From Candidatus Aenigmatarchaeota archaeon (GTDB lineage: Archaea; Aenigmatarchaeota; Aenigmatarchaeia; PWEA01; JACQIF01), in the NCBI GenBank assembly GCA_016432325.1, contig CP066684.1:96001-160000 (forward strand): a stretch of 64,000 bases of DNA. Direction: 5' to 3'. The position numbers and the translations under genes were made by a program. The notes beneath the pieces were generated by a model, which was not told where the DNA came from, did no database searches, and was given only the letters and a program-made list of their open reading frames with translations. Every line of letters starts with the position of its first letter. Position 1 is the stretch's first letter. Positions 6,884 to 62,796 of the stretch are shown here, piece after piece.

Positions 6884-7657
6884 TTACTTCTTGCCTTTCT
6901 TCTCGGTCTTGACGCCTTCCACGATGCGCGCCAGTTCGCGCACGTTGTCCGTCAGCGCCGGCAGGAAGTCCTTGAACGCGCGTTCCACAGAACTGACGCG
7001 TCCTTCCAACGACTGCAAAGATTCGCTGGTTTCGGTCAACAGCGTCTTCATCTCCGCCTTCTCCGTGTCTTGATTATCCATCATCTCGTTGAGCTTCCCT
7101 TCCAGAGAGTCCATCCTCTCCATCGATGCGCCGTAGAGGCGGTCCAGTTCCGCGAGATGCGCTTCGACGTCTTTCCACTTCTCGTTGATTACCTCTTCGA
7201 TAAGCTCTTCGAGAGCGACCTCCTCGTGCGCTGTCATTTCGACAACGCCTGCGCCTGACGGAAGCTCCTCGAGCTCTCTGGGATACTGTTCCTGAGGCAT
7301 CTGTATGCCGAAATCGTCAGGAGGCGTCTGCGCCTGCGGCGCGGGCGGTGGCAGAGGCCCTTGCGGAGGAGCAGGCATCCTCTGCATCTGTAGAGGAGGA
7401 CCCTGAACGCGCGGCATTGGAGGAGGGGAAGGCATGCGCAGTGCTTGCTGAGGCGGCGCCACGGGTTGCTGAATAGCGGGCTGCGGCGCAACGTCGCCGC
7501 CGACGGTGAACTTCAAGACGCGGTTTAGCGCCTTCGCAACCTGTTCGTTGGAAAATCCTTGTGACCGTAAGGTCGTTATTATCTCGCGCTCGCTGCGGCC
7601 TTCAGACGCGAGTCTCTGGACCTCTTCGACCGGCACACGCTCTTCCTGCTGTTCCAT
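6884..7657 (-). CDS. Pro/Gln-rich coiled-coil protein in pilus locus
   Basis: N-terminal helical domain, P/Q-rich linker, EELIEEVINEKW plus heptads; RBS GAGGAGG. Confidence 0.7.
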   Translation of the reverse strand: MEQQEERVPVEEVQRLASEGRSEREIITTLRSQGFSNEQVAKALNRVLKFTVGGDVAPQPAIQQPVAPPQQALRMPSPPPMPRVQGPPLQMQRMPAPPQGPLPPPAPQAQTPPDDFGIQMPQEQYPRELEELPSGAGVVEMTAHEEVALEELIEEVINEKWKDVEAHLAELDRLYGASMERMDSLEGKLNEMMDNQDTEKAEMKTLLTETSESLQSLEGRVSSVERAFKDFLPALTDNVRELARIVEGVKTEKKGKK

Positions 7658-7783
7658 TTACTGGTCCCTCCTCGCCTTTCCGAGTGTACGAGACTGCGGT
7701 CTCGACATGTTCGGCCGAGGGCCGAACTTTTCGAACCGCTGTTCGAAAATGTCGAAACTTTGTTTCGTACACGGTAAATCCAT
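7658..7783 (-). repeat. Multi-hairpin leader element (7684-7772) traversed by a 41-aa coupled ORF
   Basis: GTGTA-H1-ACAT-H2-H3-ATGT-H4-TACAC; ORF MDLPCTKQSFDIFEQRFEKF...RRDQ* ends TAA immediately before ATG 7657. Confidence 0.75.
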
Positions 7784-7787
7784 TTAA

Positions 7788-8186: not shown

Positions 8187-8243
8187 TTACCGGTCCCTCC
8201 TCATGCTTCTAATAGGTAAATATGAAACGGCAGTTTCATGCAT
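8187..8243 (-). promoter_or_regulatory. 18-codon upstream ORF/leader with GAAAC-TGCC-GTTTC hairpin
   Basis: MHETAVSYLPIRSMRRDR* abuts ATG 8186; similar to 12671-12727. Confidence 0.6.
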
Positions 8244-12670: not shown

Positions 12671-12727
12671 ATGGCAGAAACAGATGTTTCGTATCTACAG
12701 CTCAGATACGCAAAGAGGGACCCGTAG
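12671..12727 (+). promoter_or_regulatory. 18-codon upstream ORF/leader with two hairpins
   Basis: MAETDVSYLQLRYAKRDP* abuts ATG 12728; hairpins GAAAC-AGAT-GTTTC and CGTATCT-N7-AGATACG. Confidence 0.6.
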
Positions 12728-14934: not shown

Positions 14935-15039
14935 GTGGTTATCATCGAACTATTGAAACTGCGTCTCGGAACGCCGCGTTCCGAGTATTTCGAACCGAAG
15001 TTCGAAAAGTTTCAAAGTTCCTCCAGAAGGTGCGTATAA
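14935..15039 (+). repeat. Three-way-junction leader element traversed by a 34-aa coupled ORF
   Basis: GTG directly after upstream TAG; MVIIELLKLRLGTPRSEYFEPKFEKFQSSSRRCV* ends TAA right before ATG 15040; contains TTTCGAAC-N4-GTTCGAAA. Confidence 0.7.
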
Positions 15040-23130: not shown

Positions 23131-23196
23131 ATGCCTGAAATTTCCGAAACAAGTTTCGTCATTCCAGCCATGGGAGGTTTGAGATATGCCTGAAAT
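23131..23196 (+). repeat. 66-bp leader repeat, copy 1 (20-codon uORF 23131-23193)
   Basis: 64/66 identical to 28374-28439. Confidence 0.9.
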
Positions 23197-23902: not shown

Positions 23903-24020
23903 GAAAATAGCATGCAGCCAAAGCGCCATTCCTTCTGTGGGTATCGGCGCGGAGGCAAAACGTAAAAACGAAACGCACGAAGCGTTTCAATCTTGCCGCG
24001 TTATGCGGCAAAGTGATTCG

Positions 24021-26264: not shown

Positions 26265-26335
26265 ATGATAACCAAAATCTTGAAACTCTGTTTCAAATTT
26301 TCGTACCAGAGGTGGATGATATGATAACGAAAATC
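26252..26335 (+). repeat. Duplicated translation-initiation region flanking a GAAAC/GTTTC hairpin; 19-aa coupled ORF 26265-26324
   Basis: 26252-26279 vs 26308-26335 match 24/28 (RBS plus MITKI). Confidence 0.8.
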
Positions 26336-28373: not shown

Positions 28374-28439
28374 ATGCCAGAAATTTCCGAAACAAGTTTC
28401 GTCATTCCAGCCATGGGAGGTTTGAGACATGCCTGAAAT
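28374..28439 (+). repeat. 66-bp leader repeat, copy 2 (20-codon uORF 28374-28436)
   Basis: 64/66 identical to 23131-23196; TATAAATA at 28345. Confidence 0.9.
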
Positions 28440-30170: not shown

Positions 30171-31178
30171 TTAGTCGTGCACGAGAGGCGCAATCTTGCG
30201 CGGTTCAAAGCCGTTGCCGTTGGTGGTGTCCTTGTGTCTAATTTCCACCCACCCCGCGACGCGCTCGGCAATAGCATCTGGAGTGAAGCCGGCCTTGCGG
30301 TACAGGTCTTTCGGCGAGCCGGTCTCCCCCTTCTCGGCCCCTATTCTGCGCATGTGGGTCGGATACCTCTCCGAAAGCACGTCAGATACACTGCTCCCCA
30401 GCCCGCCGTCTATGCTGTGGTCTTCTGCTGTTACGACAAGACCGGTCTTCCTTGCATACTGTTCGATAAGCAAAGAGTCTATCGGTTTTATGGACGAGAT
30501 GTTTATCACCGCCGCACTCACGCCAGATCCCTCCAGCAGTGCTGCGGCTCCCAGCGACGGTTCTATCAGCGCCCCATAGCTCATTATCGCTACGTCGTCG
30601 CCGTCGCGAAGCACCTCGCCCTTTCCTATAGACCATTCCCAGTTGTCGTCGTGCAACGTCAATACTTCTGCGCGGGTCATGCTCATCGTCGCGGGTCCCG
30701 CGTATTTCGGGTCTTTTACGTTTGCGAGTTTGACTGTCATCTGTTTCGCTTCAACCCAGTCCGCCGGGCATAACACGGTGTCCGAGATCGCCTTGTTGTA
30801 TGATAGATAGTTGAGAACCTGGTTGCTCACGCCGTCTTGTCCGACCTGCAAGCCGACATGGCTGCCTACCTTGCAGACGTTGAGCTTCGCGCGCCTGACT
30901 ATCTGTTCGAACGGTTCGGCGGCGAGTTTGGAGAATCCCTCGAAGGTGGCGTAATAGACGCGTTCGCCTGTACGATGCGCCGCACCAGCCGCCATTGTGA
31001 CGCTGTCCTGTTCCGCTATGCCCGCATCAACGATGCGCCGCGGGTACTGTGCAGCGAAGTCCGCGAGGGACATGGAATTGCCAAGGTCCGATACGTAAAC
31101 GCGGATATTGTGCGTCTTGGCCGCTTCCACAGCGCCCCGACCGAGGCCGCTTCTCATCGATTCGTGCTGGCCCTTCAT
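30171..31178 (-). CDS. Transketolase, C-terminal subunit
   Basis: DAGIAEQ, GQDGVSNQ, SIKPID and TAEDHSIDGGLGS motifs. Confidence 0.9.
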   Translation of the reverse strand: MKGQHESMRSGLGRGAVEAAKTHNIRVYVSDLGNSMSLADFAAQYPRRIVDAGIAEQDSVTMAAGAAHRTGERVYYATFEGFSKLAAEPFEQIVRRAKLNVCKVGSHVGLQVGQDGVSNQVLNYLSYNKAISDTVLCPADWVEAKQMTVKLANVKDPKYAGPATMSMTRAEVLTLHDDNWEWSIGKGEVLRDGDDVAIMSYGALIEPSLGAAALLEGSGVSAAVINISSIKPIDSLLIEQYARKTGLVVTAEDHSIDGGLGSSVSDVLSERYPTHMRRIGAEKGETGSPKDLYRKAGFTPDAIAERVAGWVEIRHKDTTNGNGFEPRKIAPLVHD

Positions 31179-31372
31179 GCGCGACTCCCTCCTTCTCCGC
31201 GCTGCACGGGAACCGCAGTCCCCGGCATTTTCGAACAGCGGTTCGAAACTTTACGAATAGCTATTCGTAAACTTGCGACCGCGTCGCAAGAGTTCGACCG
31301 AAGGCCGAACATGTCGGGAAGCTCCACTTCCCGTACAGGGAAGGATGAAACCGCGTGTTTCGTGCCCTTCAT
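31175..31372 (-). repeat. Multi-hairpin element (31202-31338) traversed by a 65-aa ORF coupled to both transketolase genes
   Basis: Six hairpins; 23-nt identity with the 7684-7772 element; ATGA overlaps at both ends; starts MKG like the downstream gene. Confidence 0.75.
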
Positions 31373-39599: not shown

Positions 39600-39702
39600 G
39601 GGATTCACCCGGTTTCGACTTGGTGAAATCCGACTCGGTGATTTAATGGATGAAATACAAGAATTTCAAACCTACCTCGCCTGCATAGGGGTGGCGATGT
39701 AG
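39600..39702 (+). promoter_or_regulatory. Structured rps15 leader with 18-codon coupled uORF (39646-39702)
   Basis: GGATT-CACC/GGTG-AAATCC hairpin; MDEIQEFQTYLACIGVAM* abuts ATG 39703; TGAAAT-N6-ATTTCA. Confidence 0.55.
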
Positions 39703-40158
39703 ATGGCAAGAATGCACTCCGGAAAGCACGGGAAATCCCGCTCAAAGCGGCCGATACGCAAGACCGTTCCCAAGTGGGTCCGTTACAAGCCGGACGAAGT
39801 GGAAAAGCTCGTTCTGAAGCTCGCCAAGGAAGGCCGGACGTCGGCGCAGATAGGCACTCTCCTGCGGGACGAATACGGCGTGCCGCACGTCAAGGAGATA
39901 ACAGGCAAGCGTCTCGTCGCGATACTGGCGGCGCATGACCTCGAGCCCCAGCTGCCCGAAGACCTTTTCAGCCTGATGAAGCGCGCCGTGCACATCATGG
40001 AACACCTCGTCAAGCACAAGCACGATCCTTTCGCGATACACGGTCTCGAGCTCACGGAATCCAAGATAAGGAGACTCGGCAAGTATTACAAGAGGAAAGG
40101 CAGGCTCCCGGAAACCTGGGCGTATGACCGCGAGCAGGCCAGACTGTTGGTTAAGTGA
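39703..40158 (+). CDS. rps15: 30S ribosomal protein S15 (uS15)
   Basis: MARMHS...IG..LRD.YG..ESKIRRL.KYYK. Confidence 0.97.
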   Translation: MARMHSGKHGKSRSKRPIRKTVPKWVRYKPDEVEKLVLKLAKEGRTSAQIGTLLRDEYGVPHVKEITGKRLVAILAAHDLEPQLPEDLFSLMKRAVHIMEHLVKHKHDPFAIHGLELTESKIRRLGKYYKRKGRLPETWAYDREQARLLVK

Positions 40159-40163
40159 TTGCA

Positions 40164-40799
40164 ATGGCTGACGAAAAACAGGCGCAGAAACAGAAGGGAC
40201 CGCAGACAGCCGAGAGCTCGGCCGTTCAGAAGCAGAAGGCTGCCGCTAAGGCGACGTGGAAAGGCAAGGAGTGGTACGAGCTCGTCGCTCCGAAGCTCTT
40301 CGGCGAACGCGTCATCGCAGAGACGCCGGCGTCTGACATCGAACAGCTCAAGGGCCGAACGGTCACAGTGAACGCCTCGGTGCTCACTGGCAATCCTTCC
40401 AAATACTACTTCAAGATTTTCTTCAGAATCGCGGACGTGAGCGGACGCAAGGCCGCGTGCGAGTACATAGGCCACGAGTGTTCGCGCGATTTCATATCCA
40501 GAATGGTTCGCAGGCGCTCGAAGCGCATAGACACGCGCGACGTCGTCACGCTTAAAGACGGCAAGCGCGTCGTCGTCAAAGTAATCGCGACAACCATAAG
40601 GCCGACGAAAACCTCCATAGTTTCGGAAGTGGCGAAGAGGATATCGGCGAGCGTCGCCAAAACGGTGTCGACGATGGAGACAGACGATCTCATAAAGGAG
40701 ATGCTTGCCGGATCCCTGCAGAAGAGCGTCCGCACAGAGGTTTCAAAAGTCTATCCGCTGCGCGAGCTGGAGATAAACAAGACCGAAATGGTCGCGTAG
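40164..40799 (+). CDS. rps3ae: 30S ribosomal protein S3Ae (eS1)
   Basis: WKGKEWYELVAPKLF, MVRRRSKRID and KVYPLR motifs. Confidence 0.95.
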   Translation: MADEKQAQKQKGPQTAESSAVQKQKAAAKATWKGKEWYELVAPKLFGERVIAETPASDIEQLKGRTVTVNASVLTGNPSKYYFKIFFRIADVSGRKAACEYIGHECSRDFISRMVRRRSKRIDTRDVVTLKDGKRVVVKVIATTIRPTKTSIVSEVAKRISASVAKTVSTMETDDLIKEMLAGSLQKSVRTEVSKVYPLRELEINKTEMVA

Positions 40800-40909
40800 A
40801 AAAATATCGTCTGGAGCAGCAGTCATCTTTTTATACTCGCGCGACGAATCTATTCCGTACTCTTTCTTGGGCGTGCGTCGTTGGTGTACACTCACCAAAG
40901 TGATTAACA

Positions 40910-41731
40910 GTGATCCACCGGTACCTCGGAGAAGCGACGCAGGAGATAGCCAAAGCGACGCGCGCGAACACACTCGTCTTCATAAGCAAGTTCGGCAGCG
41001 CGGACGAGAAGGTTCCCATAAAGCTCATCGTCGTGAGGGAGGTTGGCACGACCGTCCGCCGCGAGTCGCGAACCCTTGAAATCAAGAGACTGCCGCCGAC
41101 GTCGATAATGCAGATTCGCCAGATAGTTCTCGAGGCCGTCAACCAGAAGCTGTTGCATCCCGGCGAGAAGGTATTCTGCATCGCCGATTCTTCTTTGGGA
41201 GAGGGCTTTGAAGGACTGATGTTCATCTTCACGATAAACGACGAGTTCATGGCTTTCACGACGCGCGACCTGCAGGAAAAGGTCGAGAGTTCCGTGTTCA
41301 ACTCCGTCTTGGCCGTTGCGAAGGAACTGGCACGCGAGGGGCGCGAAGGCAGGAAGATAGGAACGGCCTTTTTGATAGGCGATCACGAGAGCGTGATGGC
41401 CAAGAGCAAGCAGCTCGTACTCAACCCGTTCTCCGGCCACCCCATGGAACTGCGCAACGTCAGCGATCCGCGTTTCAAGGAGACCCTGAAGGAGTTCAGC
41501 CAGATAGACGGTGTGTTCGTTATAGACAACGAGGGGTTCGTCCACGCCGCCGGGCGCTACTTAAACGCCGATATAGGGCTCGTGAACTTCCCCGGGCTGG
41601 GAACGCGCCACCACGCCTGCGCGTCGATGACAAAGATGACGTCAAGCGTAGGTGTCGTTGTTTCAGAGAGCGGCGGGACAGTCCGCGTCTTCAAGGGTGG
41701 GAACCTGATTCTCGAGGAACGCGTGAACTAG
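40910..41731 (+). CDS. dacZ: Diadenylate cyclase (DacZ-like)
   Basis: ELAREGREGRKIG, LNPF.GH, IDGVFVI, GLGTRH and VSESGG motifs. Confidence 0.88.
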   Translation: MIHRYLGEATQEIAKATRANTLVFISKFGSADEKVPIKLIVVREVGTTVRRESRTLEIKRLPPTSIMQIRQIVLEAVNQKLLHPGEKVFCIADSSLGEGFEGLMFIFTINDEFMAFTTRDLQEKVESSVFNSVLAVAKELAREGREGRKIGTAFLIGDHESVMAKSKQLVLNPFSGHPMELRNVSDPRFKETLKEFSQIDGVFVIDNEGFVHAAGRYLNADIGLVNFPGLGTRHHACASMTKMTSSVGVVVSESGGTVRVFKGGNLILEERVN

Positions 41732-42120
41732 GCAGCTGCCTTGTTCGCCGCGTACCGATGCCGCTCGTGGGCGTCCCTCAATTCGAAGAACTCATCAGGG
41801 ACGGGGAGCTTCCCTTCAATAAGGTGGCGCTGCAGCTCCTCGATGCAGTCCGCAGTTACCCAAGGTTCGACGTGCGAGAGGCCTTGCCTGCCGACATCGA
41901 GCTGGTAGTCTACGGCCTTCTGGTAGGCTCGCATATTAAGCTCCTGAAGTTCGGGAATGGCTATGCCGGTCTGCGCGGATAGTTGTTCGGCCTTCTCCAG
42001 CGTCGTGAGTATCGTGTCCGTGGCGTATGGCGCGTCCAAAAGGCGCTTGGCTGAAGAAAGGTAGTCGTTTAGTCGTCTCTCTGCGTTTCTCAGTTCCTTG
42101 CTTTTCCTGTTCCCCCACAT
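41728..42120 (-). CDS. Hypothetical protein
   Basis: 130-aa helical ORF filling the gap. Confidence 0.55.
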   Translation of the reverse strand: MWGNRKSKELRNAERRLNDYLSSAKRLLDAPYATDTILTTLEKAEQLSAQTGIAIPELQELNMRAYQKAVDYQLDVGRQGLSHVEPWVTADCIEELQRHLIEGKLPVPDEFFELRDAHERHRYAANKAAA

Positions 42121-42138
42121 GCCAATCCCCCGATTAAC

Positions 42139-42348
42139 CTAGTCCCTTATGCTCGATGCGACCGTTATCCAGAACAGCCCTCCGATGAGTATCAGTATGA
42201 AGGCGAGGAGAACGGACCCGGCGAAGCTCGCTGGCGTCGCTCCAAGAACGTCCGGCGTGGCCTGCCCTCCTATCATGGCTCCGAAGAGTACGAGGAACGC
42301 GCCTATGACCCAAAAGAGTATCGGTCTTGCGCTTGTCAGACCCGCCAT
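42139..42348 (-). CDS. Small two-TM membrane protein
   Basis: Two hydrophobic helices. Confidence 0.6.
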   Translation of the reverse strand: MAGLTSARPILFWVIGAFLVLFGAMIGGQATPDVLGATPASFAGSVLLAFILILIGGLFWITVASSIRD

Positions 42349-42439
42349 GCGCTACGTACGCTTGGCGGCTATATAAACTTTGGTAGCGGCCCTTAATGGT
42401 ACAGGCTTCCCGCATGGGGCCCGAGGAGACATGCGTTAA

Positions 42440-54210: not shown

Positions 54211-54264
54211 CCTAACCACCTTACTGCCGGAAACTTGAAACCCGCGGTTTCATAGTTCGGGCAT
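54199..54264 (-). repeat. Leader element with duplicated start (MPEL/MPEL) and GAAAC-CGCGG-GTTTC hairpin
   Basis: ATG CCC GAA CTA at 54264 vs TTG CCA GAA CTG at 54210. Confidence 0.7.
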
Positions 54265-62408: not shown

Positions 62409-62692
62409 CAGCGCTCACCGACGCTTTTTCTGAGAGCACGCAATATCTCTTCCTCGTCTCCGAGAACGCTCTCCACTATCTCGGATTTTATGCTGTCCGC
62501 CGACTTGAGCCTGCCTTCCATGCCGTCGATTCTGCTTTCAAGCATGCGCACCTTTCGCTTGAGCTCTTCCAGCATGGATGTGAGATACTCTACGTCTTTT
62601 GAAGGCGCGGCGTGCGCGCTTCCGAGTTCTTCCCTGACCTCTTTCAGGGACTCTTCCACGGCTTCACGCACGGCGTCTTTAAGGGTTCCCAT
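62408..62692 (-). CDS. Small coiled-coil protein
   Basis: Start moved to MGTLK at 62692 (RBS GGTGA); TGATG coupling downstream. Confidence 0.7.
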   Translation of the reverse strand: MGTLKDAVREAVEESLKEVREELGSAHAAPSKDVEYLTSMLEELKRKVRMLESRIDGMEGRLKSADSIKSEIVESVLGDEEEILRALRKSVGER

Positions 62693-62697
62693 GAACT

Positions 62698-62796
62698 TCA
62701 CCAATTTCCTCGTGGGATGTACGAGAACCACGTTCTCGACATGTCGAAATTCCACGGAATTTCGTACAACTTGAAATCGCATTTCATTGTTCCCAT
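62698..62796 (-). repeat. Multi-hairpin leader element traversed by a 32-aa ORF starting MGTMK
   Basis: TGTA-H-ACATGT-H-TACA at 62718-62768; start duplicates the downstream MGTLK. Confidence 0.75.

Follow-up and report, generated by a model that had tools for sequence, protein, structure and literature searches.

Inverted doublets of bulged hairpins, probably a miniature mobile DNA family, in an Aenigmatarchaeota genome

REP doublets, REPINs and BIMEs are bacterial repeats mobilised by RAYT (Y1 HUH) transposases (Bertels and Rainey 2011, PMC3116915). Rickettsia palindromic elements (RPEs) are palindromic mini-elements of ~150 bp with a conserved peptide, found in frame inside essential genes (PMC10969869). 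MITEs, the archaeal PATEs and the remnants of IS200-IS605 ends are small, gene-less and nestable, with inverted ends, and integron attC sites, with their conserved hairpin ends, free stem and extrahelical bases, are recognised by structure and not by sequence. Here, we describe an archaeal element that resembles each of these in part, and of which no description was found in the literature searched. The element is probably a lineage-restricted, miniature, non-coding and self-folding mobile DNA family of Aenigmatarchaeota (DPANN), REPIN/RPE-like in kind.

The stretch of DNA analysed (the window, 64,000 nucleotides) comes from a genome of 874,869 bp (0.87 Mb) in one contig, with 56% G+C and 90% completeness; positions are those of the window unless they are marked as genome positions. 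A sequence-only reading of the window had described a branched palindrome with fixed junction words in three copies plus one relative, and the four elements are present where it put them: A at 7684-7772, B at 31202-31338, C at 62718-62768 and D at 14947-15020. All of the stems that it named pair on checking, and two words of 23 and 14 nt (CATTTTCGAACAGCGGTTCGAAA and GGCCGAACATGTCG) are indeed common to B and the reverse complement of A. Elements A, B and C occupy spacers between minus-strand genes. Element D belongs to a different host hairpin (TGAAAC-TGCG-GTTTCA), common across the genome, which has a two-hairpin insert. The features of the window are collected in Table 1.

Table 1. Positions of doublets, their hairpin units and the inserts that carry them in the window.
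Feature	Position	Strand	Remark
Cassette with copy A: ATGGATTTACCG, doublet, CTCGGAAAGGCGAGGAGGGACCAGTAA	7658-7783	-	42-codon open frame; TAA directly before ATG of gene 6884-7657
Copy A, unit 1, bulged hairpin TGT-A-CGAGAC/GTCTCG-ACA	7685-7707		R1 model match
Copy A, inner pair, hairpins GTTCGGCC/GGCCGAAC and TTTCGAAC/GTTCGAAA	7709-7748		Missing from homologous composite at genome position 653529
Copy A, unit 2, inverse bulged hairpin TGT-CGAAAC/GTTTCG-T-ACA	7750-7771		
Doublet-less 57-nt cassette (ATG, TGAAAC hairpin, TTTACC, GAGGAGGGACCGGTAA directly before ATG)	8187-8243	-	
Further doublet-less cassettes	12671-12727 and 39646-39702	+ and +	
Element D, host hairpin TTGAAAC-TGCG...GTTTCAA	14953-15015		Two-hairpin insert (14965-14985, 14988-15007) after loop
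Copy B, whole insert between split transketolase genes	31170-31372	-	9-bp direct repeat GCCCTTCAT (31170-31178, 31364-31372)
Copy B, units 31203-31227 and 31312-31337 around four hairpins	31203-31337		Inner length 84 nt
Copy B, inner hairpins	31229-31248, 31250-31271, 31272-31290, 31292-31310		Middle two nested between outer two
Copy C, whole insert: small hairpin 62772-62786, doublet, Shine-Dalgarno arm	62685-62796	-	TAG-ATG in G001
Copy C, simple doublet, 51 nt; units 62718-62741 and 62742-62768	62718-62768		

A scan of the whole genome for perfect hairpins returned 109 loci with at least two adjacent hairpins, and stems of at least 8 bp numbered 278 in the genome as against 66 in a shuffled genome, a pattern well beyond chance; an MFE-based scan for framed elements gave noisy output. 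Sorted by their flanks, the hairpins resolve into ~17 simple copies, 4 copies with two inner hairpins and 2 with four, together with ~7 copies of a variant that has a different right foot. The 17 simple copies align with invariant feet and free upper stems, and a covariance model built from them, R1, finds ~33 loci in the genome at E-values down to 1e-14. The module that emerges is TGY-A-CG[stem-loop-stem]CG-RCA with an invariant bulged A, and one such module with its inverse behind it makes up the element; the word ACATGT is merely the joint ACA-TGY of two modules. Compensatory change, proposed from the few copies of the window, is borne out across the alignment: pairing is kept in 96.5% of 340 cells, 13 of 20 pairs are altered on both sides, and none of 500 shuffles matches this. 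The fixed frame with variable and still paired stems thus stands as a description of a family, whose copies are related by descent and whose stems keep Watson-Crick pairing.

Several other compositional features of the genome were recorded. The tetranucleotides CTAG and GATC are strongly avoided genome-wide (0.15 and 0.38 of expectation), and TTCGAA is 2.4-fold over-represented, mostly via hairpin modules. A four-hairpin composite (TTTAAAAC..GTTTTAAA, CTTACGAAC.., TTTGCGAAC.., TACCGCC..), the first hairpin of which resembles a TATA box on both strands, occurs in five near-identical copies at genome positions 13806, 273227, 370026, 448810 and 607609.

The doublets A, B and C each lie inside an insert of 100-200 nt placed exactly at a gene start, and each insert is bounded by a direct repeat (8, 9 and 8 bp, respectively) that contains the host start codon. 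For copy A, the repeat is TCCATTTA (7653-7660 and 7779-7786); for copy B, GCCCTTCAT is the start ATGAAGGGC of the transketolase C-subunit gene, which the insert separates from the gene of the N-terminal subunit; for copy C, GTTCCCAT (62685-62692 and 62789-62796) is the start ATGGGAAC of the downstream gene. All three inserts possess a Shine-Dalgarno-like motif and an open frame that ends at or on the real ATG, that of B being open throughout its 65 codons and ending in ATGA at the real start. The arms between the direct repeats and the doublet are unique sequences and not repeats, except in a subfamily made up of A and the copies at genome positions 653529 and 421891. In these three, and in copy L037 of the sister species G001, the doublet sits inside a cassette that also exists without it; in its doublet-less 57-nt form, the cassette reads ATG, small hairpin, TTTACC and GAGGGACCNGTAA, followed directly by the host ATG. 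The direct repeats are uneven: those of doublet-bearing inserts measure 8-10 bp, the one at genome position 467541 measures 20 bp, those of doublet-less cassettes 4-15 bp, and the doublet itself has 0-1 bp, so that no single cut-and-paste geometry fits all of them.

Inserts of ~57 nt directly 5′ of start codons are also present at 23131-23193, 26265-26324, 28374-28436 and 54211-54264, each with an ATG of its own, a Shine-Dalgarno motif, a small hairpin and a stop that adjoins the host ATG, and several are flanked by 8-15-nt repeats of the host gene start. Cassettes ending in GGGACCNGTAA directly before ATG number at least 12 genome-wide. A tandem array at genome positions 488084-488162 holds three 39-nt units, each ending in GGGACCNGTAA and then ACAGGTTTACCG, and at 23970-24011 of the window two adjacent hairpins (GAAACGC..GCGTTTC and TTGCCGC..GCGGCAA) stand just 5′ of a start codon, without the family-1 feet.

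Orthologous sites were compared between this genome and its relatives. At the copy C site, an insert of 104 nt is present here and the genes abut in the sister species; conversely, G001 has copy L037, with ATGGACAA as the 8-bp repeat on either side, 5′ of a gene that begins MDKKALITELQKD, where this genome has an empty orthologous site. The junction between the two transketolase genes, tktN and tktC, measures 185 nt here versus 1 nt in a relative ('TGA A ATG'). The transketolase genes were not found in G001, nor were orthologues of the genes flanking A, and no relative came up when metagenomes were searched with the transketolase C subunit. Beyond the window, tRNA introns house many copies and the RNase P RNA one; of two paralogous tRNA T-loop introns, one has a clean 49-nt copy and the other has none. 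The gene for the family B DNA polymerase, polB (genome positions 39870-42356, locus L066/L067), has an in-frame 54-nt copy in an insert at genome positions 40411-40476. Its 18 extra residues are absent from five orthologues (G001 and four other genera), and the insert would be read through as an extra peptide; polB of G001 has a different in-frame insert, of 48 nt and two hairpins, ~40 codons upstream of this position. Judged from these sequence comparisons, copies have been gained or lost after speciation. As to the tRNA genes themselves, the Rfam model finds 8 and ARAGORN 12 (several doubtful), and many are interrupted, in the T-loop and at other points, by long inserts with these hairpin modules in them.

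The length of a copy goes with its setting. In translated settings, copies measure 87, 135, 51, 48 and 54 nt, all divisible by three, as are the inner inserts in five of five cases (42, 84, 45, 42 and 42 nt); none of the copies in tRNA introns, at 49, 49, 52, 52 and 56 nt, is divisible by three. Stop trinucleotides account for 0.53% of codons in the cores, all six frames taken together, versus 2.6% genome-wide. With cores this poor in stops, an open mini-frame by itself proves little, and the length-by-three pattern is more telling than the open frames.

These observations bear on the reading that the elements act in cis on mRNA, the hairpin stacks protecting the upstream message or tuning coupled downstream translation, and the mini-frame with its built-in Shine-Dalgarno motif handing ribosomes to the real start. 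Five copies (A, B, C, the copy at genome position 653529 and L037 of G001) are located exactly at a start codon, with a Shine-Dalgarno-like motif 6-12 nt 5′ of the real ATG and a frame stopping at or on it, and divisibility by three in start-codon settings agrees with such a role. However, the orthologous genes of relatives do without the element, the open frame is what composition would lead one to expect, and the same doublet occurs in untranslated RNAs. We consider a cis-acting function an unlikely account of the family, and one that would be compatible with a mobile origin through exaptation. For a mobile element, the placement at start codons may instead reflect survivorship: where spacer is nearly absent, only insertions whose duplication leaves both stop and start intact would be harmless. 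The gene-start inserts, with their own ribosome-binding site and read-through frame, suggest such a route of survival.

The copies differ from one another by pairs of hairpins, with 0, 2 or 4 inner hairpins per copy. That hairpin modules of ~20 nt are gained or lost as units, as had been proposed, is best evidenced by A and its homologue at genome position 653529, which have both arms and the first unit in common and differ by exactly one 42-nt pair, made up in A of the inner pair and a flanking T and A at the centre ACA^TGT. Wherever an inner pair occurs (a TTTCGRAC hairpin followed by a GTTCGGCC hairpin, the TTCGAAC/GTTCGGCC type), it is placed exactly at the doublet centre ACA^TGY, in six or seven of the seven cases, and none of these six or seven occurrences is free-standing. 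In B, a further pair lies between the two hairpins of the inner pair, a pair inside a pair, and at genome position 664150 two inner pairs stand side by side. It is this nesting of pairs at the centre that gives the layered look taken earlier for a branched fold. Single units are reshuffled too, as a short form at genome position 24723 and the long form at genome position 441671 share 27 identical nt in their first units and have different partner units. The idea that the inner pairs are younger than the outer units was rejected, their divergence being similar (identity 0.73 versus 0.66-0.74); at equal divergence, separate nested insertions are indistinguishable from descent of the long form.

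Growth at a centre of symmetry could also come about in place, by template switching or hairpin-primed synthesis at dyad centres, in which case the palindromes would be products of replication errors and not moving copies. Such errors would agree with the nearly pure Watson-Crick pairing, with growth at the exact dyad centre, with the uneven direct repeats and with the absence of a detected transposase in the Y1, TnpB and reverse transcriptase searches described below. They would not readily place one set of feet (TGYACG/CGTRCA) and one type of inner pair at ~33 loci and again in another order, make 27-nt units identical at unlinked loci, or deposit whole inserts where the sister species has an empty site, and we regard this origin as quite improbable.

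The sequence-only reading had favoured selection on a four-way-junction fold, that is, a dedicated structured RNA or single-stranded DNA with several branches. MFE folds of A and B do close an outer stem around the hairpins, and covariation of the stems is strong. The positions that discriminate are the frame bases of the 17 simple copies, and these covary inside the halves and not between them. Within the halves, columns 9 and 32 are UA in 8 copies, CG in 7 and UG in 2, and columns 37 and 60 are CG in 9, UA in 7 and UG in 1, with no copy unpaired at either. Across the element, columns 9 and 60, which belong to the outer stem, give 2 mismatches and 5 UG, and columns 6 and 63 are unpaired in 10 of the 17 copies; in B and at genome position 441671, the outer stem would contain a C-A mismatch. 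Pairing of the outer stem GTGTA/TACAC is hence not backed by the observed variation, and covariation within and not across the halves marks the frame as two independent bulged hairpins back to back. The candidate placement of doublets at the apex of a host hairpin was likewise rejected, columns 6 and 63 pairing in just 7 of 17 copies, about the chance level.

Four further grounds argue against selection on one dedicated RNA. The copies are found in settings as different as mRNA spacers, tRNA introns, the RNase P RNA and the polB reading frame; their presence varies between sister species; G-U pairs (6 of 340 cells) are no commoner than plain mismatches (12 of 340); and the frame is identical when read on either strand. 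The rarity of G-U pairs also makes a hairpin at the DNA level a better fit than an RNA hairpin, if only modestly so. An Rfam match, which had been named as something that might explain the elements, was found neither at gathering score across the window nor at E ≤1 around A, B, C and the copy at genome position 467541. Taken together, a junction fold under selection appears highly improbable. Arrays of double-stranded sites for a dimeric DNA-binding protein (operator, segregation or nucleoid) would account for the two-fold symmetric frame of short palindromic words (GTAC, CATG, TGCA) but are hardly credible, as a double-stranded site needs no covarying intra-strand stems of free sequence and copies also lie inside polB, tRNA introns and the RNase P RNA.

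Among the 22 genomes of the order, R1 is confined to this genus, with ~33 loci here, 9 in the sister species and none in the 20 others. Over 151 genomes of the class, with 35 and 32 strand-matches it is abundant again in a genus of another order (g28), nine further genomes have looser variants, the feet of which are CA..TG, and true doublets are present only in records titled Aenigmatarchaeota. This patchy distribution fits a mobile element with a patchy helper. The search for such a helper covered three Pfam families and found no match to the Y1 transposase (PF01797), the TnpB zinc ribbon (PF07282) or reverse transcriptase (PF00078) in this 90% complete genome; PF01797 had no match in the element-bearing genomes G001, G114 and G083 either. 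An element-rich relative, G045, possesses an intact Y1 gene of 150 residues. A link to RAYT or IS200 was rejected, as this genome has no Y1 match and R1 does not match on either side of the G045 gene. The two tyrosine recombinases of this genome (~395 residues) were rejected as mobilisers as well, since homologues scoring equally well are encoded by the element-free genome G004.

Two observations were made in the vicinity of the recombinase genes. A doublet at genome positions 784475-784560 has a 9-bp direct repeat, CACCGAGGC, at the 5′ end of a minus-strand tRNA gene, of which the repeat is the first 9 nt; the gene of a 395-residue tyrosine recombinase (genome positions 782962-784149) adjoins that tRNA, as in an integrated element. 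The perfect palindrome ATATAACACTGTTATAT occurs at genome positions 289058-289082, 282506 and 689895 and at locus L043 of G001, once beside the other tyrosine recombinase gene.

For the miniature mobile DNA family that we favour, a mechanism can be outlined. The hairpins would form in single-stranded DNA, where a structure-specific enzyme may read the conserved foot and the extrahelical base and copy or move the module. Modules would be tolerated by virtue of being self-folding, having no stop codons in six frames and, where translated, being divisible by three in length. More tentatively, the element may represent an undescribed structure-specific insertion system acting on folded single-stranded DNA, one that reads the TGY-A-CG foot together with its flipped-out base, prefers the joint of two hairpins and also seeds the heavily interrupted tRNA genes, the RNase P RNA and essential proteins of these reduced archaea; this is a possibility to which we assign limited weight, and if it were true, elements would nest like Russian dolls. 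The covariance model and the clean filled and empty sites are at hand, and the missing known transposase, together with patchiness across orders, makes the mobilising enzyme a well-posed question. Inserts of this kind are tolerated by a symbiont-type genome of 0.87 Mb, whether the site is polB, a tRNA intron, the RNase P RNA or a start codon.

How does this family relate to the described systems? Like REPINs and BIMEs, it consists of imperfect palindromes that are short, share a conserved foot and form inverted doublets, in tens of copies (~33 loci), non-coding, with hairpins kept across copies and a patchy occurrence among relatives. Unlike REPINs, it is archaeal, and its halves, the stems of which differ, fold singly and not with each other. 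The foot is TGY-A-CG here and GTAG there, copies enter reading frames and structured RNAs, and additional pairs are nested centrally. A RAYT gene was not found in this genome, G001 or G114, and in G045 the repeat does not flank the Y1 gene. With RPEs it shares the palindromic mini-element lying in frame inside an essential gene (polB, 54 nt), whereas its modules are ~50 nt with free stems and lie mostly outside reading frames.

Like MITEs, PATEs and the remnants of IS200-IS605 ends, the element is small and gene-less, can be nested and has inverted ends (TGYACG and CGTRCA), and like IS200-IS605 ends, the doublet itself lacks a target duplication. At its own ends no target duplication of fixed length was found, the empty sites in the tRNA-intron paralogue and polB showing 0-1 nt of ambiguity; unlike in MITEs, the 8-9-bp repeats bound the larger gene-start insert and not the doublet. 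Within the three Pfam families searched (Y1, TnpB zinc ribbon, reverse transcriptase), no parent insertion sequence sharing these ends emerged, nor did TnpA or TnpB in this genome, a probable difference from MITEs and PATEs. The conserved hairpin ends, free stem and extrahelical bases recall attC, but the copies are scattered, with neither a cassette array nor an attI, relatives have empty junctions at the orthologous positions, and the distribution of the two tyrosine recombinases is not that of the element. As it falls outside the defining features of REPINs and BIMEs, RPEs, and MITEs and PATEs, we file it under miniature palindromic mobile DNA and not within those families; the bulged module, the inverted doublet and the central nesting provide a precise anatomy for an archaeal counterpart of the REP-type mini-elements.
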